Virus record (IMG/VR): IMGVR_UViG_3300029944_000014
Strand: one strand, 5' to 3'
Length of the DNA: 48,178 bases
Source of the DNA: a virus
Shown: piece by piece, positions 2,964 through 30,513 of the stretch
How positions within the stretch are numbered: position 1 is the stretch's first letter
Layout: each line of letters begins with the position of its first letter
Position numbers and translations under genes: made by a program
Notes under the pieces: model-generated
The model's database searches: none
Seen by the model: only the letters and a program-made list of their open reading frames with translations
What the model was told of the DNA's origin: nothing

Positions 2964-3356
2964 TTACAGATGCAGCAGTTCCTTCAAGCGCGCCCACAAG
3001 GCATGTACTTCCGCGCCGGCGTCGTCGTAAGCCGTTTTGATATGGCTTTCCACTTCTGCAGCTAGGTCCGTAGCTTCATCGTGATCGGTAGGGGTAATCA
3101 CCACGCCGGTTGTGCTCGGATCAGCAGACACCACGGCCGGGGTTTCAGCGGCAGGCTCGGTTTGCGCAGCATCTTGAACAGCAGGGGTTTCGACCACAGG
3201 TTCAGCTTGCGCGGCATCTTGAACAGCAGGGGTTTCGACGACGGCCGCAGTGCTCGCTTCCGCGGTAGCAGCAACTTCAGGGGTCGATACTTCGGTGACA
3301 GGTTCGGCTGCGGGTACGGCTTCCGGGGTTTCGCCAGTTACGGTCTGATCGCTCAT
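2964..3356 (-). CDS. highly acidic E/P/A/T/V-rich repeat protein (130 aa), unknown function
   Basis: The track ORF is 2964..3374. I prefer the ATG at 3356 (MSDQTV) because AAGGAA lies 5 nt upstream. It has a tandem 15-aa (45-bp) repeat VVETPAVQDAAQ[A/T]EP, almost no K/R, and a short helical C-terminus. Confidence 0.7.
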   Translation of the reverse strand: MSDQTVTGETPEAVPAAEPVTEVSTPEVAATAEASTAAVVETPAVQDAAQAEPVVETPAVQDAAQTEPAAETPAVVSADPSTTGVVITPTDHDEATDLAAEVESHIKTAYDDAGAEVHALWARLKELLHL

Positions 3357-3408
3357 TTTGTTTCCTTGGTTCAAGTTAATAAGGTAAGAGCCGCTACGAT
3401 AACACGAT

Positions 3409-3639
3409 TTATTTGCTCGGCGCTACAGCAGGGCAGTTTGCTCGATAGGCTCGGTCAAAAGTATCGATCTCGCGCCGTGTCTCGATCGTATCCGATGCTG
3501 AGGCGGACATAGGAGAAAGCCAGGTACAGGCGCTATCGATTACCACGGGTGCCGAGGGCAGCATGAGAGGGGCTTGGCTTGCGCATGACACCAGGGCAAG
3601 TCCTGTACAAGCTACTAACACTCTAATTAGCGTGCGCAT
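3409..3639 (-). CDS. o-spanin (outer-membrane lipoprotein, Rz1-like)
   Basis: 76 aa. Signal peptide with lipobox (ALVSC), followed by a Pro-rich short mature part. It lies directly downstream of the i-spanin candidate. Confidence 0.75.
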   Translation of the reverse strand: MRTLIRVLVACTGLALVSCASQAPLMLPSAPVVIDSACTWLSPMSASASDTIETRREIDTFDRAYRANCPAVAPSK

Positions 3640-3944
3640 TAGTCTTTCCTCAGTTCGCCCATGGCGCTTAAGTCAGCATCGATCGATGCATCAGGGATAG
3701 CGGTTGTCGCTTTTTGCGCCGCTACACTGTTCTGCACATCGGCTGTTACGGCCTGTGCAGCCTTCGCTTGGCCTTGTGCTGCGGCTGCTTGACTGTTAGC
3801 TAGGGCAATCTGCGTACTTGCCTTAGCCGTGGCCGCAGCGACCCCTGTAGCGCGGCCGTGGAACCAACTACCGATGCAGCCGGCGCCCAGGGCCAATAGC
3901 CCGAGGAATAACTTGCTTGAAAATAGAGATAAAAGCAGCGTCAT
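3639..3944 (-). CDS. i-spanin (Rz-like)
   Basis: 101 aa. N-terminal TM (LFLGLLALGAGCIGSWF) followed by an Ala/Gln-rich helical periplasmic domain. It follows the endolysin. Confidence 0.7.
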   Translation of the reverse strand: MTLLLSLFSSKLFLGLLALGAGCIGSWFHGRATGVAAATAKASTQIALANSQAAAAQGQAKAAQAVTADVQNSVAAQKATTAIPDASIDADLSAMGELRKD

Positions 3945-3946
3945 GA

Positions 3947-4594
3947 TTAGATCCTTTCAATGAAGGATACGACATCTTGCACCAAGGAGGGTGCGGATAC
4001 AGGCGCTTCGACAACCGCCAGGGTACCTTCAGAGGTGGCGGCCGGTACCGGCATAGGCTCGGGTACCGATTCGGCGGCAGGCGCACCGATTACCCCGCCG
4101 GCCGCAGTATCCGCAGCCTCTAAGGCTGCGTCCGTCGATTCGGGCTGGCCGTAACTATTACCGGGCAGACTGGCCCAGATATGCGCGCACAGGCCAATAG
4201 CTGTATCTAAGTCGCCGGCCAGAATCGCGGGAATAGCATTGCATTCTTTGATCAGCCGGATAGCCCATTTATCTTGAGATAGAGGGCTGAAGTCCGGCAA
4301 GGATAGCAGCGCTTTATAGGCCAGCCAGTCTTTTACCAGGAACTGGTACCGGCCACTGGCCGTAGAGGTCAAGCCTACGTGATTCACGACGACCGGCGCA
4401 CGGCCGGAGGCGAAAGGGTGCTGGCTGTAATCTGTAAAAATATTAGGACCGTTAACGCCCGACACAATTACGTCGTAGCCGTCGTTAGCCGTAACCGGGC
4501 TACTTGCGGTACCTTCACTGGCTTTTGACGCGATCATATCGAGGAAAGCCGTGATATTCGTACCGCCTACTAAATTCGGATTAATGACAGCCAT
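3947..4594 (-). CDS. endolysin, lambda R-like lytic transglycosylase/lysozyme with Ala/Pro-rich C-terminal extension
   Basis: It aligns by eye with lambda R: AFLDMIA..SEGT (catalytic Glu), GYDVIV, FTDYSQHP, SGRYQFL, LPDFSP.SQD, IWASLPG..YGQ. About 60 extra C-terminal residues. Confidence 0.92.
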   Translation of the reverse strand: MAVINPNLVGGTNITAFLDMIASKASEGTASSPVTANDGYDVIVSGVNGPNIFTDYSQHPFASGRAPVVVNHVGLTSTASGRYQFLVKDWLAYKALLSLPDFSPLSQDKWAIRLIKECNAIPAILAGDLDTAIGLCAHIWASLPGNSYGQPESTDAALEAADTAAGGVIGAPAAESVPEPMPVPAATSEGTLAVVEAPVSAPSLVQDVVSFIERI

Positions 4595-4896
4595 TACTCA
4601 CCTCTTCGGTCAAAAGTTAAAACACGGGCCAGAATAATCAGCAGAGAGCCGATAGCGGGGGCGACAGATCCATCGGCGTGCGGGAAAAAGCGCATGACAA
4701 ATGGCGCCACGTTCGGCCACTGGTCCGCCAAGGAGGGTAGCAGCCGCGGCACGGCTAGGTAAAGACCGGCGAAGGTGGCGGCGATATGGATCGACCCGTA
4801 TTTCCAGCACTCGCGCCAGTCATCAACTAAACGCAGCCGGAAGCCACGTCGCGTTACCGTTGGCGGTGTAGGAAGATTACCCAGTGGTGTAGTCAT
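4594..4896 (-). CDS. two-TM membrane protein, holin candidate
   Basis: 100 aa. Hydrophobic segments IHIAATFAGLYLAV and VAPAIGSLLIILARVL. Its stop overlaps the endolysin start. Confidence 0.5.
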   Translation of the reverse strand: MTTPLGNLPTPPTVTRRGFRLRLVDDWRECWKYGSIHIAATFAGLYLAVPRLLPSLADQWPNVAPFVMRFFPHADGSVAPAIGSLLIILARVLTFDRRGE

Positions 4897-4898
4897 GA

Positions 4899-5309
4899 TT
4901 ACCCTGCAAATTTTTCAAGCAACGCATATCCTTTCATCGCCCAAGTCGCCCATACGGGTAGGGTTTGAAAGGTCAGATAATGGACAAGCGCTATGATACC
5001 TAAAGTCGCTAAACCTTTTTTAGATAGCAGCCAGGTCACAGCCCATTCATAAGTGCGCGCCGCTTTACAAAACCCTCGGCCCCAGCGCGCCCCGCCTTCC
5101 CACATGCCGACGATTCCTTCAATCGAAGATTTAATCTCAGCGCTAGAACCGTCCTGTCGTTCTAAATGCTCTTTGATCTCTGTCACAGCGCAAGCAAGAC
5201 CGGATAGCGCTTCTGAGACTTCTTTAAACCGATTACCCCCGACGTCTAATTGATGCTCAGCGCGGCCCATGCGCTCGCGTAGTTCGCTAATCTCGGTTTC
5301 GGTGCTCAT
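4899..5309 (-). CDS. membrane protein with N-terminal coiled-coil, holin/antiholin candidate
   Basis: 136 aa. Charged helical N-terminus and hydrophobic C-terminal half (LATLGIIALVHYLTF). First gene of the lysis cassette. Confidence 0.4.
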   Translation of the reverse strand: MSTETEISELRERMGRAEHQLDVGGNRFKEVSEALSGLACAVTEIKEHLERQDGSSAEIKSSIEGIVGMWEGGARWGRGFCKAARTYEWAVTWLLSKKGLATLGIIALVHYLTFQTLPVWATWAMKGYALLEKFAG

Positions 5310-5332
5310 AAGTCTTTTCCTGATAAGAGAAA

Positions 5333-5373
5333 GCCGCTTAAAAGCTAAGCGGCCTTCGGGCAGTAAGCCGCTT
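5333..5373 (-). terminator. Three-segment alternative hairpin/terminator between tail-fibre genes and lysis cassette
   Basis: GCCGCTT (5333-5339), AAGCGGC (5347-5353), GCCGCTT (5367-5373). The middle arm can pair with either flank. On the minus strand each hairpin is followed by a T-rich run (AGCTTTT or TTTCTCTT). Confidence 0.55.
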
Positions 5374-5378
5374 AAATA

Positions 5379-6029
5379 CTATACGCCTGTCGCTTCCCAA
5401 GTAAAGGCCACGGTCTGGTTGAACGTAGCGTAACCTAGCGTGTCGCCCTTGGCAGTAAATCCAGTAAGCGTAGGCGCGCCTTGCGCCCCCGTTGTAGGTT
5501 GGCCGCCGGTACTGCTATTGGCTGATCCGTAGGGGGTAATTTGCATCGCCCATACGCCGGAAGTAAAGGCCACAGGAAACGTAACTGCCAAGGTTGAGGT
5601 TGTCGCCGCGCTGGCTGGCAATGTGCCGCTTCCCCACTGCGTAATAGTGCCGTCTGGGTTATTGCGCCATCCTGGCGTAGCCTTTACCCCGACACTGGCG
5701 CCTGCCTGGACGAGATTGGTCATAGTGCCGTCGGTGATGAAACTGGACACGCTATCGCCGGCCAGCCAGTTGTCCGCCGCAGTACCTTCCTGCGCACGTA
5801 TGATCGTCATTACATCGGCTGTGCGTGCTGTGCAAAAACAGATCTCATTGACGAGGCCAGTCAGTGCGTCGACCAGGGTAATGCGGAAAAACTGATTGAG
5901 CCCGGTATTCGGGTTCGGGAAAAGCGCACCGGTCCCTGAAGCCACTGTTAACGATGTGGCCGTGGATACCAGAGGGGCCGCTAGTGTTGTTCCTGCATTG
6001 TTGGCAAATAGCTCGGTGATGGCGCTCAT
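5379..6029 (-). CDS. tail fibre protein B (second receptor-binding protein)
   Basis: 216 aa. Its N-terminal roughly 100 aa are paralogous to CDS 8893..9513 (ANNAGTTLA.P....T.LTVA.GTGALFP.P). The C-terminus is divergent. Confidence 0.7.
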   Translation of the reverse strand: MSAITELFANNAGTTLAAPLVSTATSLTVASGTGALFPNPNTGLNQFFRITLVDALTGLVNEICFCTARTADVMTIIRAQEGTAADNWLAGDSVSSFITDGTMTNLVQAGASVGVKATPGWRNNPDGTITQWGSGTLPASAATTSTLAVTFPVAFTSGVWAMQITPYGSANSSTGGQPTTGAQGAPTLTGFTAKGDTLGYATFNQTVAFTWEATGV

Positions 6030-6334
6030 GTTGAAACCTCCGGCGGGATAGTGGCATTGGCTAAGCAGTGGCCTTTACCGAAGATAAAATCAATAAAGGG
6101 CGCGGCGAAAGAGGCCCACGGCTTGCCTTCAATCAAAGCGTTACCTGTGGCTGTGCTAATCGTCTCCGTAGGCGGGTTGCCGAATAAAGCGCTACCGCAC
6201 TCATCCTGCGCTATTGCCATGCTCTTAGCTCGCGCCTCCGAGCCGAATAGCGCCTGTATGAGCATAGCGGTTAGGAGCACCGGAGTAAAAAGTACCACGA
6301 GGAGCCACATGCCTAGAAGTTCTAAGCGCGTCAC
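6026..6334 (-). CDS. small membrane-anchored/secreted protein inside the tail-fibre cluster
   Basis: 102 aa. N-terminal hydrophobic helix (LLGMWLLVVLFTPVLLTAMLI) and two Cys in the soluble part. 4-nt overlaps with both neighbours. Confidence 0.6.
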   Translation of the reverse strand: MTRLELLGMWLLVVLFTPVLLTAMLIQALFGSEARAKSMAIAQDECGSALFGNPPTETISTATGNALIEGKPWASFAAPFIDFIFGKGHCLANATIPPEVST

Positions 6335-22489: not shown

Positions 22490-23512
22490 TTATTCGTACT
22501 GGATCGACAGAACCGTAACAGCTTCGCCGCGTTGGCCCCAGCCCGACGTGATACGCAATTCGCTCAGCACGTCGATAGCGCCACCCGGCAACGGGGTCGG
22601 GATTTCCCGCGGCGCGACCATATCGCAGTACATCACGTTTGTAGCCAACATACCCGGCGTCAGATCGGCAAACGTATTGGTATTCCAATTCGGGATCTTG
22701 GGTTTCTTGATCTCAGGTACTGTCAGAATCACCGCATCTGTGCCGCCCGCACCTTGGCCTTGGAGTGTGTCGTCATAGCACCATTCCAAGGTGTAACCGT
22801 TACGTTTCAGGATATCTTCGATCAAACCCTTCGAAGTTTCCGTACCGGCACCGGTACGCTGGAATTGCGTAAGCTGGACGATATTTTGCATTTCCATCGG
22901 CGCCAAGATCCGTTGCGGACCCAATACGACGATGCGGCCGACTTGGCCCATCTGGTACATACGGGTCAGGATCGAGGTAACTAGCGTCAGGAAAAACTCA
23001 GCCAATTGCCCGTTATCGTAAGTGACGAGCGTATCGTTACCATTCGAATCGGGCGGCAAGCTAATCGCCGTGGCACCGGCCGTATTGATAATGCCTTCGC
23101 CGCCGGCCGGGTTCATCCCGTAAATCGCAGCGTTACGGCTTGCCTGAAAGATACCCTGGCGCATGCCGAGCTTTTGCGACTCGGGCAGCGATGCGCCCCA
23201 GCGGCTAAAGCCAGCCGTATCGTGGTGATCGTACTCAGCGCGCACGCGCAACAGATACGTCGGTGTGTTGATCTGCGAAGGCACAACCGATACGCTCGGC
23301 AGTTGGTTGTAAGCGACTTGGCCGGCGGCAGCAATCGTGCGAATGTCCATGCGCTTTTGATACACGTACAGATCACCGTCGCCCAAGCGCACCATTGGCT
23401 CGCCTGTCGCAAACATTTCGAAGGCCCCGGATACCTGATTAAAATTCAGGATGATTTCGGGGGCGGTGTAATTCGGGCTTACCTGGGAATAGGCAGGCGC
23501 AAGATTTGCCAT
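22490..23512 (-). CDS. major capsid protein
   Basis: 340 aa. It follows the scaffold and a small decoration-like gene and is followed by a terminator. The overall sequence resembles DUF2184-type capsid proteins as I recall them (unverified). Confidence 0.8.
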   Translation of the reverse strand: MANLAPAYSQVSPNYTAPEIILNFNQVSGAFEMFATGEPMVRLGDGDLYVYQKRMDIRTIAAAGQVAYNQLPSVSVVPSQINTPTYLLRVRAEYDHHDTAGFSRWGASLPESQKLGMRQGIFQASRNAAIYGMNPAGGEGIINTAGATAISLPPDSNGNDTLVTYDNGQLAEFFLTLVTSILTRMYQMGQVGRIVVLGPQRILAPMEMQNIVQLTQFQRTGAGTETSKGLIEDILKRNGYTLEWCYDDTLQGQGAGGTDAVILTVPEIKKPKIPNWNTNTFADLTPGMLATNVMYCDMVAPREIPTPLPGGAIDVLSELRITSGWGQRGEAVTVLSIQYE

Positions 23513-23524
23513 GGTAGTAGCTCC

Positions 23525-24136
23525 TTAAATTTCGATGAGAGCGCAAGCGCCGTTAAAATTCCAGGTGACAAATCCAGTACCTGAGTTGTATTGCACGATC
23601 ATACAGCCGGTTGCGATCACGTTGAGGATCTTGCACGGGAAGGCGCCGGGCGTAGCGTTATACGCAATCAATTTCTGATTGACATAATCCCAGGACACTT
23701 GCTGGTTGATCAGACCGGTATTCAGGCTGACCAGTGCAGGGTCGCACTGTACCGCGATACGCGCATGCGAGCCGAACCGGTAGAAGTTCACCGTCCCGCC
23801 ACTCGGCACAGCCGGCGCATTGCTTTGCGGTGTCGTGATCGCGTTATTGAGTTGGTTATAAACCGTCATACCGGTAGCGCCAGCTTGATTCGCCGCGCGC
23901 TCGATATTATTGCCCAGGCCGTTAGCCTCGTCGGCCAGATTCAGATATTCACCGATGACCACGCCACCCCACATCGGCAGGGTTTCGGTGCTAGCCAGGA
24001 CGCCGCCGGCCAGTGAATTACGGATGTTCGGGTCATCCATGGCGATACCCTGGACCATGCCGTAAGTAGTCGCGGAGAACGTGCCCGTCGCGTTGGTCGT
24101 GATATTCGGGTTGAGTGAGATAGCGCTTGTCGTCAT
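23525..24136 (-). CDS. capsid decoration/cement protein candidate
   Basis: 203 aa. It lies between the scaffold and the major capsid protein, the same position as the cement protein of BPP-1-type heads. Confidence 0.45.
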   Translation of the reverse strand: MTTSAISLNPNITTNATGTFSATTYGMVQGIAMDDPNIRNSLAGGVLASTETLPMWGGVVIGEYLNLADEANGLGNNIERAANQAGATGMTVYNQLNNAITTPQSNAPAVPSGGTVNFYRFGSHARIAVQCDPALVSLNTGLINQQVSWDYVNQKLIAYNATPGAFPCKILNVIATGCMIVQYNSGTGFVTWNFNGACALIEI

Positions 24137-24139
24137 GGC

Positions 24140-25882
24140 TTAGCCCTTCCGTGGATCTTTGTTGATTTGGGTCACTAGACGGGGCTCGCTCATAAACGGC
24201 GCCATCCAGCTACGCGGGCTGTGGCCTGCATATTCGGTGATCTGGCGGCCGGTAGCGTCGGTGCGGATAATCGGGCGAAGCTCAGCCGATCCTGCATCAA
24301 CGGTATGCGCGCTCACCATGGCATCGGCGTAAATCGTTTCTTCAGCCATCGCTAGCACGGCTTCCGGCAGTTCCGGCGTCAGCTCGATATCCTTCCAAGC
24401 GCCGGAGTGCTTTTGCAACGGGCGAGCCAGCCGCTTTTTGTACGACAGCAGCGTTTCGCCGGACATTGGCGCCGGGGCGCGCTGGCCGAGGGCCGAGTAC
24501 ACGCTATCAGCGCGAGCCTGTGCGGTAGCGAACAGGCCGTAGTCAGCCGCTTGCGTATCCCGCGGCAAATTGCCTTCGAGCATTTCCAGGCGTTTTTTAA
24601 GCGCTTGGTTTTCGCTCATAGCTGCGTCGGCCTTCTTGTTCGCTTCCTCGGCTTTCTCGTCCGCCTTTTTATCGGCGGCCGTCATCGTCGGAGCAGGCAA
24701 TTCTTCACCTGCACCGTCAGCCTTTTTATCGGCTTTCTTGTCGCCTTTACGGGCCTCCTCCATGCTGTCCATCCGGGCGCCCATAGCTGCTACGCTATCC
24801 GCCAAGGAACGAGCCCAAGCCGGCTGTTCGGCATCGGCCTTGGCCTTAGCTTCGTCCGCTTTTTTCTTGTCTTCTGCTTCTTTGGCTTCGGCGTCGGCTT
24901 TAGCCTTCAGTTCTTCTTCCGTCATGATTGATTCTCCATTTGCTGAATCCGATATAACGCCAGCAGCCGCGCCGCCTTTGTCCCATACTCCCAACTCACA
25001 GACTGCCACGTGATCAATAAGCCCTGGTTTGCCTTCAATCAGGAAAGGCGTACCGTCGGCTAACTGCAGCATACCGTTCGCGCCTTCCCTGAAAACAACC
25101 GTGGGCGAGGTCGATACCTTAAAATCCGGGTCCGACATAATCTCTACGGCATCGGCATCGTAAATTCGGGCTATCGCCCAGACCTCGTCACCTTTGATAT
25201 AAGGCAACATAATCGAGCCGACGATACGCTTTTTAAATTCTTTCGAGTCTAGAGTGCGCTTTTCCGGGTGCAACATAATAACCGGCACGCCGTTACATCG
25301 CGCTAAAAACTCTTTGGTCAGGTAATTTTCTGGCAAACGTAGCACATATTCTTGATCTAAGCTACGGTACGCAATGCCAGTGCCTGTTACGCGAATCGCG
25401 AACAGGGCCATGTTTGAGTAAATTTGAGGGGAAGGCAAATCGCCGGAAGCGATCGACCGGGCTACGTCCAACTCGCTAATATCGGCCGGGTTTTGGCTAT
25501 TGTTCGCCTGCAAATGATTATTGCCGAGCAGGTCTTGCACGCCGGGATGCAGGTTCGCCGGGTAAGCGCCGAAGTCCACCCACATAAACGCATCTGACTC
25601 ACTATTCAAGGTCGGCGTGAATTGCTCAACCCGGGCAACGAAAGTCGTAAATTCGTTGTGGCCATCGTTCGAATAGCTAAGCTGCGTCAGGTCCGAGCAT
25701 TCGTATTTCAGTTCCTCACGGCACTCGCGCCGCGCTGCTTCCTCAGGGGACTCGCCAGCTTCTAGGCCCCCGGCCGGGAAAGCCCAGGTACCAGGGTAGT
25801 CGCAAGATAGGCTGCGTTTCGTCAGCAAGATTTGGTTGCCGGAAACAAACATCACCCCGGCTGCGCGTTTTAGCTCAGCCAT
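24140..25882 (-). CDS. Nudix hydrolase domain fused to capsid scaffolding/prohead-core protein
   Basis: 580 aa. Nudix box GGLEAGESPEEAARRECREELKY at residues about 38-60. Then a DUF2213-like region (DLPSPQIYSNMALFAIRVTGTGIAYR ... LIDHVAVCELGVWDKGG). Then a K/A/D/E coiled-coil (KAKADAEAKEAEDKKKADEAKAKADAE, KKADKKADG, KKADEKAEEANKKAD). It occupies the scaffold slot. Confidence 0.85.
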   Translation of the reverse strand: MAELKRAAGVMFVSGNQILLTKRSLSCDYPGTWAFPAGGLEAGESPEEAARRECREELKYECSDLTQLSYSNDGHNEFTTFVARVEQFTPTLNSESDAFMWVDFGAYPANLHPGVQDLLGNNHLQANNSQNPADISELDVARSIASGDLPSPQIYSNMALFAIRVTGTGIAYRSLDQEYVLRLPENYLTKEFLARCNGVPVIMLHPEKRTLDSKEFKKRIVGSIMLPYIKGDEVWAIARIYDADAVEIMSDPDFKVSTSPTVVFREGANGMLQLADGTPFLIEGKPGLIDHVAVCELGVWDKGGAAAGVISDSANGESIMTEEELKAKADAEAKEAEDKKKADEAKAKADAEQPAWARSLADSVAAMGARMDSMEEARKGDKKADKKADGAGEELPAPTMTAADKKADEKAEEANKKADAAMSENQALKKRLEMLEGNLPRDTQAADYGLFATAQARADSVYSALGQRAPAPMSGETLLSYKKRLARPLQKHSGAWKDIELTPELPEAVLAMAEETIYADAMVSAHTVDAGSAELRPIIRTDATGRQITEYAGHSPRSWMAPFMSEPRLVTQINKDPRKG

Positions 25883-25909: not shown

Positions 25910-26728
25910 TCATTGTGCTGCGACTCGCTCTAAGCTTTTAATGCCCAAGACCGTAAGCATATAATCCGGCACACTGGCGAGATTGTACACATAAACGTAG
26001 CTACAGCGGCAAAAGGGCTCTTCGCCGGGCTGCGTAATCTGATCGGTATAACCGGCAGGGCCGACTTTCATCAAACCTTTCTGCATCGCCCAGTTACCGC
26101 GGATCGCATAATATTTCCTGTCACGCTCTTTATGGTCGGGCCGATAGTTGTACCCCGGCTGACGCCAGCGTGAATCCCAAACAGCACACAAAGCGTTATT
26201 GTCGAGTGCGATGATATCGTTGATATTCGATATCAGCTTGTGCGCTTGATCAATCAACACGCGCCGCTCTTCATAGGGTAGTGAGGTAAGGGGCTTAGTT
26301 AAATTCTCCTTAACTTCTTTCACTTCTACTACGTTGCTCCCGCCGGCCGGTACCGAGGTCGACCAACCTTCAAAGCGCTGAATCGTCTTGCGTATCGTTT
26401 CCTCGCGATGCAACTTGATCAAATTGCGTGAGGCTTCCATGCGCCGCTCTAACTCGCGATGCAGGCTAGGTTTCATCTGGTCGATCGTAAATCGCGATAT
26501 GCCCGGATGCACTTTGTACACGCCGTCTTTCTCGATAAAACGCGTGTACACGGTACGCAGCATGCCGTTCAACATATTTTCGACCATGCTTTGCGGGGTG
26601 TAATGCCTGGCCGCAGCCTCGCGTATCACGAGTATCCACCGCTGGATACGCGCTTGCGAGTCATAGCCGTGCGCTTCGATATCGCGGATCGCTTCGGTGA
26701 TGACTTGGAAAAAGGATTTGCTAGCCAT
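25910..26728 (-). CDS. head morphogenesis protein (Mu F / SPP1 gp7-like)
   Basis: 272 aa. It lies after the portal. The C-terminal RPDHKERDRKYY...PGEEPFCRCSY is typical of this family. Confidence 0.75.
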   Translation of the reverse strand: MASKSFFQVITEAIRDIEAHGYDSQARIQRWILVIREAAARHYTPQSMVENMLNGMLRTVYTRFIEKDGVYKVHPGISRFTIDQMKPSLHRELERRMEASRNLIKLHREETIRKTIQRFEGWSTSVPAGGSNVVEVKEVKENLTKPLTSLPYEERRVLIDQAHKLISNINDIIALDNNALCAVWDSRWRQPGYNYRPDHKERDRKYYAIRGNWAMQKGLMKVGPAGYTDQITQPGEEPFCRCSYVYVYNLASVPDYMLTVLGIKSLERVAAQ

Positions 26729-26993
26729 GGGCCGAGGTCAAAGGGATGAATTCTTTGTCTTTGATATAACCGAAACGATGCGTCTTTAACATCGTGCTCG
26801 CTACTTCCTGCTGGGTAAAAAGTTCAACAAACCAAGTGCAAATAGCCTCAGAGTCAAAATCTTCTATCCTTGCAGCAACATAATGCTTGGCGCCCGTCAT
26901 ACTTTCGTATTCAAACACCGGATGCATCGTAACGAGTTCGATCCTATGGACCTTGGTATCGACTCTAACACGCAGTGTGTACTTATCGAGCAT
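26721..26993 (-). CDS. hypothetical protein (90 aa)
   Basis: ORF between the portal and MuF-like genes, overlapping the MuF start. Confidence 0.55.
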   Translation of the reverse strand: MLDKYTLRVRVDTKVHRIELVTMHPVFEYESMTGAKHYVAARIEDFDSEAICTWFVELFTQQEVASTMLKTHRFGYIKDKEFIPLTSAHG

Positions 26994-27006: not shown

Positions 27007-28479
27007 TTAGGCAGTTACAGCAAAAGGCTTCGGTCGACTGGTCGGCGTCTCGGCTTGCTGAGTGTCTTGCTGTGCTAACTGACTAGCGGCATCCTCGCTA
27101 GCCTGTTGCTGTTTCTGCAGGAAGGCAAGCAACTCGTCAAATTCAAGCATAAGCGGTGTGCTAAACATCAGCTTCATTTCGCTGAGGTTATCCGAGGCCC
27201 AGCGCATAACCTCAGCTTTATTAGTCGGGTCGACTAAGGGCGTCATAACTTCCATCACGGCGACAATAGCTTTGAGCTTCACATCTTCGACCTTGACCTG
27301 TTCGCTTTCCGGCTCAATCAGCAGGGAAGGCCAAGTAGCACTAAAGCTATTTTTCCATTTGTAAAAAGCTTGCTCGTAGGGGATAGCTTGATACTCAGGG
27401 AAGTCGGCTTGCACGCACGCATAGAACTCGGGGGACCAAGCGCGATGCATCGTAATTTCATCGAAATAAGCGTAGGCCGGATTGAGCCACTTACGAATAT
27501 TGTCGATATATCGCGCCACGTTCTTAGCGTCCTCGGTACCTTCCCCGAAACCTTCCGCGAAGGTCTCGCTATTCAATAGCTTGGCCGGCATATCCGCGGC
27601 GACAGCGACGTTCTCTAACACGTTCTTACGTGCTACCGTCATAGCGGTATCTGCGTTTTTCAGGTCAAGTGTCTCAACCGAATCTTCCGGGCCAATGTTG
27701 ATCACATTGTTAGTCGTCGCTTCTTTCAACAAATCCCGCTTACGCCCCGCGGCGCGCTGCATCAAGTTAGTGATAACACCTGTGATCTGTTTCAGCTTGG
27801 CGATCAGTACCCCGGCCTTGCGCGTCACAAGATCATCGGTACGCATTGATTCGATAAACGTCTTAAGTGGGTAGAGTGCCCGCTGATAGACCGAGCACCC
27901 GACATAACCGAAGGCCGAGCCCGTGTAATCGAGGAATACCGGCTCTTCATTCATTAGCACACAGGCGCGGCTGCGGTGATAAACCTGGCCGGCGGCCGTC
28001 ACGTCCTTGTATTTCAGGAAGTCAGGTGCATTAGGATCTTGATTAAGCACGAGTGAGCCCGACGTATTCAAAGGGTCGAGTACGTTGAAATAGAGTTCAA
28101 GCTTAGGCCACTTGAACGGGTCGATCGGTTTATCTGTCGGGATATTGACGGCGCCGACGATGACCGTCGCAACCCCGTACACCCGAGATAGCGAACCAAC
28201 GTTGAGGATGTTCTTGTCATTCTCAAGATTCAGCCACTCGTCCTCAAAAGCTTTGCGCAAACGATCTTCGGGGCCACCGTTAATCGTTATCTTGCGCTCT
28301 TGGGATTGCGCCATCTTAATCGGCGCGCGCGCCATCTTGGCGCCGAGCGGGTGATAGCGATAGATCAGCTTACACAATTCGTAAGAAGGCGAGTCGCCTG
28401 GCTGGATATCGCCGCCGCTCATAATCTGAGCAAAAGCTTGCCCTGTGCCCGTGCCGTTGCTGATTTCGTATTCGGCCAT
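27007..28479 (-). CDS. portal protein
   Basis: 490 aa. Directly downstream of terL. Gln/Glu-rich acidic C-terminus. The N-terminus (SYELCKLIYRYHPLGAKM) resembles DUF1073-type portals as I recall them. Confidence 0.85.
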   Translation of the reverse strand: MAEYEISNGTGTGQAFAQIMSGGDIQPGDSPSYELCKLIYRYHPLGAKMARAPIKMAQSQERKITINGGPEDRLRKAFEDEWLNLENDKNILNVGSLSRVYGVATVIVGAVNIPTDKPIDPFKWPKLELYFNVLDPLNTSGSLVLNQDPNAPDFLKYKDVTAAGQVYHRSRACVLMNEEPVFLDYTGSAFGYVGCSVYQRALYPLKTFIESMRTDDLVTRKAGVLIAKLKQITGVITNLMQRAAGRKRDLLKEATTNNVINIGPEDSVETLDLKNADTAMTVARKNVLENVAVAADMPAKLLNSETFAEGFGEGTEDAKNVARYIDNIRKWLNPAYAYFDEITMHRAWSPEFYACVQADFPEYQAIPYEQAFYKWKNSFSATWPSLLIEPESEQVKVEDVKLKAIVAVMEVMTPLVDPTNKAEVMRWASDNLSEMKLMFSTPLMLEFDELLAFLQKQQQASEDAASQLAQQDTQQAETPTSRPKPFAVTA

Positions 28480-28490
28480 GATTTAAATCC

Positions 28491-29759
28491 TTAGTAGCCG
28501 TCGCCGTTGCCGAGGGCCAAGCTGATACCGTAAGTGAAGCAGTCCAGTAAATCATCTACTTGATCCTTCACGCCTATCTTGAATCCGAGCACTTGGGTGA
28601 GAAAGTGATTCCGGGTCTCGCCTTTGTATTGCACTACCTTATCGTAAGCGTATTGAGTGATCTTAACGAGGCCTTGATAGACATAGCCTGAGACGCTAAT
28701 CGCCCGTTCATCCTTGCCTAGTGCCGTAAGTTTACTGTCAATTGCCTGTGCAGGCCACCCGCGACGCAAGGCCTGCTGGATAAGGATAGTACCTGAAGCC
28801 TTATCTTCGATGAAAGCGCCCTGTGATCCGTTACGCGCCTTGGTCTTAACGCACAGCGCTTCTAGGTTCTGGAAAACCGTGGGTAGCCAGGTCTCAAGCA
28901 GCGCGCCTTCGATCTGCAGCACATCCCAATCCAAGATGGTAAGCGGCTTGCCGTGGAACTCGGAATATCCATAATACGTTACGCCGGTACCGTCGTTATC
29001 CTTGCCTGTCTTAACTGCTGTATCGATCACGGCGAACACAGTATCGATGTGCTGAGGGGTCGGCACGGGCACGCCGTTATCGAGCATCGCCGTGAGGCTA
29101 AAGAATTGCACCCCGGACCAATCCACGAACTCAGCGAGGTATTCTTGCTTAAAGACAAGCGGGTGATTCTGTACCCGGAGTAGAGCTAACTCCTCGGGCG
29201 GCAGGAAAGGATTGCTATGCGACGGCGCATGATAGCTGATAAACCCGTGCTTGTTCTCAGGGTCATTGCATATCTTGTAGAAGAAATTATCTGGGTCAAC
29301 CCCGTTCGGCGTACTCGCTGCAATTGCTGTGCCGCGATAGTCGAGCAGGGTAGGCTTGATGGATTTGGCCCAGATATCCATCATATTCGGTTTAGCAAAA
29401 GCCACTTCGTCAAGGATGGCTTTGTGGTACTTGCGGGACCGGCCGGCACGCGGGTTCTCTAAGGTCCAGAAGTCAATCCGGCCTCCTGTGACTAGCCGGA
29501 TCACACCTTCGGTTTTAGACGACCGACGCTTAACGACTTCCAGGATATCAAGGATCTGTTCATATACCTCGGTCTGCTGCTTATACTCCGGCGTAAACCA
29601 ACCAACCGACTCACGTTTAACCGCAGCATCGCAAGCAACCGTAGTCAGATATTCAGTCTTGCCCCAGCGGCGCCCGCATCGCAATACCTTAAACCGGCCA
29701 CGTGCGAGATGCGCGTTTATCTGCCCCTGGTGTAGTGTAGGCAGGATGATTTCAGGCAT
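28491..29759 (-). CDS. terL: terminase large subunit
   Basis: 422 aa. Walker A CGRRWGKTE, Walker B-like AILDEVAF, nuclease-half Asp motif FAVIDTA. It is flanked by the terS-like and portal genes. Confidence 0.9.
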   Translation of the reverse strand: MPEIILPTLHQGQINAHLARGRFKVLRCGRRWGKTEYLTTVACDAAVKRESVGWFTPEYKQQTEVYEQILDILEVVKRRSSKTEGVIRLVTGGRIDFWTLENPRAGRSRKYHKAILDEVAFAKPNMMDIWAKSIKPTLLDYRGTAIAASTPNGVDPDNFFYKICNDPENKHGFISYHAPSHSNPFLPPEELALLRVQNHPLVFKQEYLAEFVDWSGVQFFSLTAMLDNGVPVPTPQHIDTVFAVIDTAVKTGKDNDGTGVTYYGYSEFHGKPLTILDWDVLQIEGALLETWLPTVFQNLEALCVKTKARNGSQGAFIEDKASGTILIQQALRRGWPAQAIDSKLTALGKDERAISVSGYVYQGLVKITQYAYDKVVQYKGETRNHFLTQVLGFKIGVKDQVDDLLDCFTYGISLALGNGDGY

Positions 29760-30513
29760 CGCGATTCACCCCGTCTTCAGCCTGTTCGAGATACGTCACT
29801 TTCGGCTCTTCGCGGATTTGTGCGTCGGCCGGCAAGCCACCGATGATACGGATCAAAGCCGGGTCGTCAGCGCCTTCCTGATTAGTTGCGCTACCCTGGC
29901 TAATGCGATAGTCCATTTGACTAACCCTAACCTTTTTAGGCGTCATGCGCCCCATGATCCATTGGCGTGTCGTTATCTGTAAGTTGGCACGTTGAGTGTT
30001 GTCAATGCGTTTAATCTTTTGCTTGGTGATACGGATTTTAGGCTTGCCTGTTTCGGGGTCGATAACAAGCTTGCCGCGCCGATACACTAGCTCTTGTTCA
30101 GTCTCTTCGATTAGCGAGATACGGTCATCATCGGCAATCTGGACACACTCGTCTTGCATAGATTGCAAGCGGACCTCAAGCGCAGCCGCGTACATCTCTG
30201 CTACGCCTTTAAACTCAGGGTATTCTTCAGGTGCCGCAGCCTTATCGAGCCAGGTAAATAGCAGGCTCATACTCGGCATGCCAGGTTGATTAGTCGCGTC
30301 AGTAACGGTCATTCCTCGCACACCTGGGCCACCGGCGATATAGCTACAAAGCTCGGTCATAACCGCATGAGTAAATGTGACAAGCTTTGTAGGCTTATAC
30401 TTCGCGGCCTTGGGCGTGATGGCCTTCATGTACGCCTCTTGCACCTCTTCAACTTGAGCGAGCGCAGCAGCTAACTCTTGCTCAAGTTGCTCCTTGGTTT
30501 TAGCTTTAGCCAT
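29752..30513 (-). CDS. terS: terminase small subunit
   Basis: 253 aa. It overlaps the terL start by 8 nt. N-terminal coiled-coil followed by an HTH-like segment (ELCSYIAGG..GMTVTDATNQPGMPSMSLLFTWL). Confidence 0.65.
   Translation of the reverse strand: MAKAKTKEQLEQELAAALAQVEEVQEAYMKAITPKAAKYKPTKLVTFTHAVMTELCSYIAGGPGVRGMTVTDATNQPGMPSMSLLFTWLDKAAAPEEYPEFKGVAEMYAAALEVRLQSMQDECVQIADDDRISLIEETEQELVYRRGKLVIDPETGKPKIRITKQKIKRIDNTQRANLQITTRQWIMGRMTPKKVRVSQMDYRISQGSATNQEGADDPALIRIIGGLPADAQIREEPKVTYLEQAEDGVNRDA

Follow-up and report, generated by a model that had tools for sequence, protein, structure and literature searches.

The protease-scaffold proteins of viral heads, such as herpesvirus UL26/UL26.5, lambda C/Nu3, Mu I/Z, and P2 gpO, carry an assemblin-fold protease N-terminal to a scaffold, and an in-frame internal start provides a second product with the same C-terminus; UL26.5 is such a nested scaffold and the more abundant product. 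In phage T4, the internal proteins and Alt are placed in the prohead core by a 10-residue N-terminal capsid-targeting sequence, trimmed by the protease gp21, and ejected with the DNA. Here, we analyzed a gene that can be compared with both arrangements. It is an open reading frame (ORF) of 580 amino acids (aa) at 24140..25882, on the minus strand, of the IMG/VR virus record IMGVR_UViG_3300029944_000014, a stretch of 48,178 nucleotides (nt) that is called the window below. The ORF begins with ATG, contains no internal stop codon, and encodes a Nudix hydrolase domain followed by a predicted prohead protease (DUF2213), a scaffold region, and a C-terminal domain. Like the protease-scaffold genes named above, it would place an assemblin-fold protease before a scaffold and use an in-frame internal start; in contrast to them, it has an enzymatic passenger N-terminal to the protease, and its products and cleavage sites are predicted. 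We favor the reading that the gene encodes a head-assembly polyprotein with a passenger enzyme, that its two products share one C-terminus, and that the Nudix domain is carried in the capsid and delivered; taken as a whole, we consider this reading evenly balanced between right and wrong.

The fusion was described computationally in 2022, when Iyer et al. (2022; PMC9503650) published it with a packaging and injection hypothesis, and an earlier paper had noted polyvalent effector proteins whose C-terminal part is an assemblin-like peptidase (Iyer et al., 2017; PMC5512222). In the sections of the two papers that deal with such proteins, the domain combination, the late or head-module context, the bias toward contractile-tailed phages, and the packaging/injection hypothesis are the same as those considered here. 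The first-pass annotation of the window, which was made from the sequence alone, had put the gene forward as an undescribed system. This was not upheld, because a PHROG family of unknown function spans the whole fusion (phrog_6216, residues 7–574, E = 1e-151), deposited phages carry it, and the sections of Iyer et al. (2022) mentioned above describe it. The window gene is a further member of the family and a good test case. What is new is the explicit, model-based assignment of DUF2213 in this family as a protease, together with a conserved nested scaffold start, a map of the linkers, a quantified conservation of the Nudix active site, and variants with an ADP-ribosyltransferase (ART) or a PBECR1 nuclease. 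The passages of Iyer et al. on these fusions make no mention of a nested scaffold start or a C-terminal scaffold module. The Pfam architecture DUF2213+NUDIX was also noted in passing in a transposon-sequencing (Tn-seq) paper (PMC8770471), in which the DUF2213 of Burkholderia cenocepacia BCAM1066 was called a “putative essential domain” on the basis of Tn-seq and CRISPR interference. If DUF2213 is a phage prohead-protease domain, as proposed here, BCAM1066 is probably prophage-borne and the call of essentiality merits re-examination.

In the full-length AlphaFold2 (AF2) model, four folded or helical modules are separated by disordered linkers, and we are highly confident of the architecture Nudix, protease, scaffold, and C-terminal domain. 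The first module was identified as a Nudix domain by both sequence and structure. Pfam NUDIX (PF00293) matched residues 5–112 above its cutoff (E = 4.3e-19), the predicted local distance difference test score (pLDDT) of the domain was ∼90, and Foldseek returned 523 PDB matches at E ≤ 1e-3, every one a Nudix enzyme, with template modeling (TM) scores to the targets of up to 0.8. These results bear out the Nudix fold expected at first pass, and the near-canonical Nudix box reported there, with RE..EE present and the final Gly replaced by Lys, is read identically from the translation: the pattern is G38-x5-E44-x7-R52-E53-C-R-E56-E57-L-K59-Y60, in which U54 is Cys and the sole deviation is K59. 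We then aligned the 580-aa protein with 117 homologues (118 sequences in total; the family alignment), which were collected by a search with the non-Nudix part only. A Nudix domain was present in 112 of the aligned homologues, and 110 of these 112 kept G38, E44, R52, E53, E56, and E57. Pairwise identity averaged 0.57 both in the Nudix domain and in the scaffold C-terminal domain, indicating that the Nudix domain is under purifying selection as an enzyme. Judged by its motif, the domain is seemingly catalytically competent.

The searches that recovered the Nudix fold gave a mixed picture of its substrate. The domain reached no NCBIfam equivalog cutoff; its best partial matches there were MutT, NudG (pyrimidine deoxynucleoside triphosphate, dNTP, diphosphatase), NudI, and RppH, and the ADP-ribose (ADPR)/NAD families were the weakest. 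The PDB profile matches were headed by NudG and MutT (E down to 4.7e-12), and the structural neighbors found with Foldseek included NudC, NUDT15, NUDX1, MutT, YmfB, and RppH. A substrate assignment from these three sources was rejected as too mixed. The NAD and ADP-ribose substrates suggested at first pass are favored neither by sequence nor by structure, the best profiles being those of MutT/NudG-type nucleoside triphosphate (NTP) pyrophosphohydrolases. The passages of Iyer et al. (PMC9503650) name these Nudix domains “T4-like nudE,” whereas the window domain is nearer to phrog_1198 (E = 7.6e-24) and to the MutT-NudG profiles than to phrog_1185, the family of T4 NudE (E = 6.5e-10). BLASTP gave 28% identity to T4 NudE over 101 aa (E = 3e-7), and cellular MutT/NudG profiles scored similarly or better. 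T4 NudE (e.1) is likewise a phage Nudix protein but stands alone, and the substrates noted in its record (FAD, ApnA, ADP-ribose, and NADH) form a range that is not transferable at this distance. In the T4 genome (63000–69000), nudE adjoins e (lysozyme), ipIII, and ipII, consistent with what the published passages say about the clustering of NudE-like genes with virion and late genes.

The second module was assigned as a prohead protease domain. Pfam detected DUF2213 (PF09979), a family to which it gives no assigned function, at residues 179–298 (E = 5.8e-5; 23.6 bits against a gathering cutoff of 22, a small margin), and the PHROG “head maturation protease” (phrog_530) matched residues 179–436 (E = 5.7e-7). 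A permissive Pfam scan gave DUF2213 only and no Pfam peptidase family; NCBIfam had no match to residues 135–580, and a PDB sequence search had none to the C-terminal 446 residues. The AF2 model of residues 140–320 (pLDDT 84; predicted TM score 0.79) was more informative. Its top 45 PDB matches in Foldseek were exclusively herpesvirus assemblin proteases and T4 gp21 (probability 0.9–1.0). In BFVD, there were 116 matches at E ≤ 1e-3, to DUF2213 proteins and to many entries labeled prohead serine protease, Proheadase_HK97, or prohead core scaffold; the matches to annotated prohead proteases had E values of ∼1e-7 to 1e-8 and TM scores of ∼0.6. An assemblin-type fold for residues 137–300 is therefore well supported by modeling. 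In addition, all 118 sequences were invariant at C196, H205-P206, S257-T-S259-P, D290-H291, C295, and G298-VWDK. In the model, H205, S257/S259, and D290-H291 lie on or beside predicted core strands in the order His…Ser…His, which we take to be that of the assemblin-type triad. From the predicted fold and these putative catalytic residues, we strongly infer that residues 137–300 act as a protease. The first-pass annotation had read this region as the N-terminus of a plain DUF2213-type scaffold. The DUF2213 match was confirmed, but the plain-scaffold interpretation was not, since the region has the assemblin/gp21 fold with invariant H205, S257/S259, and D290-H291; when the part after the Nudix domain (residues 140–580, of which the model covers 140–320) was examined with AF2 and Foldseek, a protease fold was obtained rather than a plain scaffold. 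Likenesses to gp21 motifs that were noted by eye (NHP/LHP, GNDVYGRARV/GDEVWAIARI, and VSS/VST) were regarded as anecdotal and not used as evidence.

The protease domain is flanked by two linkers, in which pLDDT fell below 50 at residues 122–132 and 312–322, respectively; the second disordered stretch comprises residues 303–322. A conserved [M/L/I]-x-E-[L/T] motif stands exactly at the Nudix/protease junction. It reads ISEL in the window protein (residues 135–138; window 25469–25480) and straddles the first linker and the protease domain, its last two residues lying in the protease part. The motif presumably resembles the cleavage preference of T4 gp21 (L/I-x-E, followed by the cut), and we speculate that it may be a processing site, or else structural. 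A sequence “MTE” recurs at M320 in the family alignment. An additional internal start at the junction, where the consensus is “MTE,” was rejected: a Shine-Dalgarno (SD) motif was found in only one of 39 contexts, and this copy has Ile.

The second linker contains the signal for a nested gene. In the window, GGAG precedes the ATG of M320 with an 8-nt spacer (aatGGAGaatcaatcATG), and M320 is nearly invariant in the family alignment. We surveyed this start in 85 related loci, from five deposited phages and the best 80 of at least 581 IMG/VR loci, which were collapsed to 54 distinct contexts; an SD-like motif was defined as a 4-mer or longer of AGGAGGT at −17 to −4. An ATG occurred within ±8 residues of the M320 position in 52 of the 54 contexts, and an SD-like motif at this position in 46 (85%), with a spacer peak at 7–8 nt. 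In controls, such a motif was seen at 6.8% of the 738 remaining in-frame ATGs, at 11.6% across every codon position, and at 18.5% in the Glu/Lys-rich stretch directly after the start. The encoded residues before the start vary by lineage (VQEPEM, NEAEIM, LGAVDM, RGDSVM, NEVQKM, and SGGNTM), and the purine motif is present in each. Furthermore, GGA accounted for 16 of the 20 Gly codons in the SD window and for 11.6% of those in the rest of these genes (p = 3e-12; binomial, uncorrected for phylogeny). A shared purine motif over differing residues, together with the GGA bias, points to nucleotide-level selection for a ribosome-binding site. It is thus likely, from the conserved start signals, that the gene yields a nested 261-aa scaffold-only product besides the 580-aa polyprotein. 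The start of the long form is preceded by no more than a weak AAGG motif, which agrees with a low output of this form and a high output of the short one; the short form is therefore probably the major species and the long form the minor one. The internal start that the first-pass annotation placed near SNMALF was rejected: M158 is M, V, I, or L across the family, none of the 54 contexts has an SD motif there, and the conserved start is M320.

Downstream of M320, AF2 predicted long helices, with low confidence, at residues 322–343, 355–378, and 410–438. With the Lys/Ala/Asp/Glu-rich composition of the translation, they agree with the coiled-coil, scaffold-like segment noted at first pass. The folded C-terminal domain that follows has invariant residues Q455, E476, Y481, R484, and G545, and was present in 131 of the 150 closest cluster representatives. 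It is presumed to be the capsid-binding or oligomerization end of the scaffold.

We next consider how widely this gene is distributed. With residues 135–580 as the query, 1997 homologues were found at E ≤ 1e-5 among the candidates scored, and PF00293 was present in ∼110 of the top 120; they include Burkholderia, Paraburkholderia, and Caballeronia prophage proteins named “NUDIX domain-containing protein.” Among the IMG/VR loci of the start survey, the Nudix end was present in all of the best 80. The protease domain alone matched at least 805 cluster representatives (clustered at 50% identity), and for 498 of these E was ≤ 1e-30. Of the 150 closest representatives, a Nudix domain was present in 93 (∼62%), 10 of which had extra N-terminal sequence; 50 had no N-terminal domain, and seven had a different N-terminal region. 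These results indicate that the fusion is widespread, and is neither rare nor lineage-specific as had been considered possible at first pass.

The relatives also differ in the passengers they carry. In P0209 (857 aa), an Alt/VIP2-type ART (PF03496, residues 27–167, E = 1.5e-19), with R, S-T-S, and E-x-E motifs visible in its sequence, precedes Nudix, protease, and scaffold in one polypeptide; this was the single ART and Nudix case among the 265 relative proteins examined. In P0165 (672 aa), a PBECR1 nuclease (PF18809), which is a polyvalent-protein effector, takes the place of Nudix upstream of the protease-scaffold, and P0121 carries DUF5710 and Nudix on the protease-scaffold. Effector domains are thus exchanged combinatorially on one protease-scaffold carrier. 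Many relatives (e.g., P0045, P0121, P0112, P0118, and P0209) also have short leader motifs in the N-terminal 25–45 residues upstream of Nudix or protease, such as “MPxKxGSSxxxISxNI..AGK..KQAxAIxYSKAR,” “SEAQHKAMxAAxHG…VGKEF,” and “(E/S)xDHPRxxxGKFGSGGG.” These leaders may serve in targeting or mark a processing site; the window protein has none of them and begins directly at the Nudix fold. Nudix is, moreover, linked repeatedly to head genes beyond this fusion: the window domain matched positions 522–619 of phrog_15528, which is annotated as a portal protein, and a stand-alone Nudix gene overlaps the end of a “minor capsid protein” gene in Burkholderia phage BCSR129 (4989–5417) and directly follows a “virion structural protein” gene in Ralstonia phage PQ43W (5001–5531).

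Several deposited phages carry homologues of the full fusion: Pantoea phage PdC23 (pdc_04, “NUDIX hydrolase”), Klebsiella phage Chronis (gp4) and RothC/D, Yersinia vB_YenM_29.18 (gp055), Shewanella vB_Sb_QDWS (gp44), and five Yersinia temperate phages in all. A Nudix-less form occurs in Escherichia coli phage Rac-SA53 and in an Actinobacillus phage. The deposited homologues of the full fusion are collinear with the window protein over its full length at ∼40–44% identity, and share the order large terminase (TerL), portal, MuF-like, this gene, a small gene, and major capsid protein (MCP). They are known as annotations only, some of them wrong, and in a megablast search of the head-module DNA against 50,697 phage records, the window phage had no match at roughly ≥ 85% identity. 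Three annotations are likely to be erroneous: the Nudix-protease-scaffold gene is called “glycosyl transferase” in Yersinia vB_YenM_29.18 (2986–4617) and in other Yersinia phages; the Nudix-less homologue of Rac-SA53 (4995–6287) is labeled “TolA protein” and bears the note “nudix”; and the positional counterpart of the 203-aa ORF of the window is called “endosialidase” in PdC23 (5303–6175).

From this architecture, the following course of head assembly may be proposed. The long product would consist of Nudix, a flexible linker, an assemblin-fold prohead serine protease, a second flexible linker, a helical scaffold, and the C-terminal domain, and the short product, translated from the GGAG-ATG at M320, would be the scaffold alone and the abundant form. 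Through their shared coiled coil and globular C-terminal domain, both would co-assemble with the MCP, and a minority of long chains would thereby bring the protease and Nudix inside the procapsid. On activation, the protease would cut the two exposed linkers, take the scaffold apart, and release a Nudix domain of ∼14 kDa, which would most likely remain in the head and enter the host together with the DNA, as a pyrophosphohydrolase made in advance. By analogy with T4 Alt and the internal proteins, the cargo would be located in the prohead core, released by the protease, and ejected, and P0209 has an Alt/VIP2-type ART on the same platform; the window gene would, however, use covalent fusion to the protease-scaffold in place of the T4 targeting sequence, with ejection being hypothetical. 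As in the head-packaged effectors or phage polyvalent proteins of Iyer et al. (2017), the head module here contains a gene in which an effector domain is joined covalently to one for head assembly. The relatives with ART and Nudix, or with PBECR1, on the same platform strengthen the idea of capsid loading and favor delivery. Loading of Nudix into the capsid is plausible, and we lean toward the view that Nudix is carried into procapsids; that it is retained and ejected to act early is speculative, and we place it somewhat below even chances.

Several results weigh against this reading. The PDB Foldseek values of the protease model were modest (best E = 2.8e-3, TM ∼0.44), and a comparison of the family profile with the T4 gp21 sequence alone by hhalign gave no significant match (probability 0.1%), so that the proposed protease stands on fold and motifs, with a putative triad. 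The binomial p-values for the SD motif and the GGA codons are uncorrected for phylogeny. The last glycine of the Nudix box is replaced by K59 in the window protein, whereas 107 of the 112 relatives have the canonical G59; K59 is confined to this copy and its 99% twin. In the classic systems, the prohead protease and the scaffold fragments leave the capsid, and Nudix could likewise be expelled or degraded. A literature search on Nudix-scaffold/protease fusions, virion-associated Nudix, and the named relatives found no functional study, and no proteomic, biochemical, or genetic study of any member.

The exit of the protease and scaffold fragments leads to the main rival explanation, in which Nudix works only in the producing cell, or transiently in the prohead, and is then degraded or expelled without ever entering the next host. 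The fusion would then give late, high-level co-expression or a timed removal of the enzyme, which would act on the late cytoplasmic pool, including alarmones, NAD/ADPR-type signals of late-triggered abortive infection, and damaged or modified NTPs. This explanation agrees with the record of the best-studied phage Nudix, T4 NudE, which is annotated as a soluble enzyme, with the profile affinity to housekeeping-like MutT/NudG-type NTP pyrophosphohydrolases, and with the one third of close relatives that have no passenger. However, a separate gene would suffice for co-expression, and the covalent fusion has been kept across hundreds of clusters. The other passengers, an Alt/VIP2-type ART and the PBECR1 nuclease, come from classes that are predicted or known to be injected, as far as the relevant sections of Iyer et al. 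(2017; PMC5512222) describe them, and Nudix is also fused to or located beside portal and MuF-type genes, in part as given in the corresponding passages of Iyer et al. (2022; PMC9503650). We consider action confined to the producing cell less likely, and delivery in the capsid remains our preferred reading.

The two lesser rivals fared worse. A plain, non-proteolytic DUF2213 scaffold that carries Nudix, with plain scaffold made from the SNMALF start, would suit a Pfam family with no assigned function, and both the coiled-coil-like segment and the location of the gene in the scaffold slot do exist. We nevertheless disfavor it as improbable, because residues 137–300 have the predicted assemblin/gp21 fold with invariant His/Ser/His and match the “head maturation protease” PHROG, and because a start at SNMALF, in addition to its variable residue and missing SD motif, would delete the invariant S151-P152, while the conserved start is M320. 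In the other, Nudix would be a non-catalytic structural or regulatory module with a partly retained enzyme motif, which either binds nucleotides or acts as a pro-domain that keeps the protease from becoming active or leaving the monomeric state before assembly. This would suit K59, the scores below the NCBIfam equivalog cutoffs, and an N-terminal position right before the protease that is typical of pro-domains, but it is the least probable of the three. The metal-binding and catalytic residues E44, R52, E53, E56, and E57 are all intact here and in 110 of the 112 relatives, which is hard to explain without catalysis; the 50 close relatives with no N-terminal domain have a functional-looking protease-scaffold, so that regulation of the protease does not require Nudix; and unrelated enzymes replace or join Nudix in relatives.

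The features of the gene and of the head module are summarized in Table 1. The head module is encoded on the minus strand in the order small terminase (TerS), TerL, portal, 90-aa ORF, MuF-like gene, 580-aa gene, 203-aa ORF, and MCP. The 580-aa ORF therefore does lie uninterrupted in the scaffold slot between the MuF-like and MCP genes, as the first-pass annotation had stated, but its label “decoration” for the 203-aa gene found no support, the family phrog_6268 being of unknown function and Pfam giving no match. The MCP also had weak matches to phrog_264 “major head protein” and to Pfam Major_capside. The 90-aa ORF had no Pfam or PHROG match, and it is likewise called as a gene in near-identical metagenome contigs.

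Table 1. Positions in the window of the 580-aa gene, its predicted parts, and the surrounding head genes.
Feature	Position	Strand	Basis or remark
Small terminase (TerS)	29752-30513	-	phrog_1482
Large terminase (TerL)	28491-29759	-	
Portal	27007-28479	-	PF06381
90-aa ORF between the portal and MuF-like genes	26721-26993	-	Overlaps the MuF-like start by 8 nt
MuF-like head morphogenesis gene, upstream neighbor	25910-26728	-	phrog_324 “head morphogenesis,” E = 6.4e-22
Full-length gene: Nudix, predicted prohead protease (DUF2213), coiled-coil scaffold, C-terminal domain	24140..25882	-	phrog_6216, AF2
Nudix hydrolase domain, residues 1–120	25523..25882	-	Pfam PF00293, AF2, Foldseek
Nudix box, residues 38–60: GGLEAGESPEEAARRECREELKY	25703..25771	-	Translation
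Linker 1, residues 121–136, disordered	25475..25522	-	AF2
Predicted assemblin/T4 gp21-fold prohead protease domain (DUF2213), residues 137–302	24977..25474	-	AF2, Foldseek, invariant residues
Linker 2, residues 303–319, disordered; SD GGAG at 24934-24937	24926..24976	-	DNA: aatGGAGaatcaatcATG
Predicted nested in-frame scaffold gene, M320 to stop, 261 aa; ATG at 24923-24925	24140..24925	-	
Lys/Ala/Asp/Glu-rich helical (coiled-coil-like) scaffold region, residues 322–438	24569..24919	-	AF2, composition
Folded C-terminal domain, residues 445–560	24203..24550	-	pLDDT 85–93
203-aa gene between the 580-aa gene and the MCP	23525-24136	-	phrog_6268 (unknown function), E = 1e-53
Major capsid protein (DUF2184-type)	22490-23512	-	phrog_6671, E = 1e-142

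An intact ORF that is 99% identical and has the same neighbors was found in four independent metagenome assemblies. No stop codon or frameshift separates the two parts of the gene, and with this twin and the IMG/VR relatives, an assembly or frameshift artifact was ruled out. Elsewhere in the window, genes for tail sheath, baseplate, tape measure, endolysin, primase, helicase, exonuclease, a Gp2.5-like single-stranded DNA-binding protein, and DNA polymerase were detected, indicating that the window is the genome of a contractile-tailed phage or a large part of one. At 854–1792 on the plus strand, a 312-aa ORF had weak matches to collagen-like and tail-fiber PHROGs, and overlapping ORFs of 168–195 aa occur at 998–1602 in several frames on both strands. 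These open frames suggest a biased, repeat-like segment, probably a collagen-like tail fiber region.

The analysis corrects the anatomy of the gene, in that the predicted protease sits between cargo and scaffold, and defines linkers and candidate catalytic residues for mutagenesis; it also points to likely errors of annotation in deposited genomes (“glycosyl transferase” and “TolA protein”). Because this is a large family, of at least 805 clusters, with cultured members among the phages of Klebsiella, Pantoea, Yersinia, and Shewanella, a direct test of the published hypothesis is possible. If Nudix is packaged and injected, the phage would bring with it a hydrolase already made, able to act ahead of any phage gene expression; its targets could be nucleotide-derived immune signals, alarmones, or RNA caps, and the paradigm of T4 Alt and the internal proteins would be extended from modifiers of macromolecules to erasers of small-molecule signals. 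More tentatively, and with considerable doubt, the protease-scaffold with its nested gene may be a general effector-loading platform of contractile-tailed phages, on which, in this phage, tens of copies of an active MutT-like Nudix would be loaded per capsid, freed by the protease, and ejected with the DNA, and would destroy a pyrophosphate-containing immune signal or cap at time zero of infection. The candidate targets would be glyco-cyclic ADP-ribose (gcADPR)- or ADPR-type signals, NAD-capped RNA, (p)ppGpp/ppApp-type alarmones, or a dNTP-like signal. If this were true, the Nudix of this family would be the first demonstrated capsid-delivered, small-molecule-degrading anti-defense enzyme.

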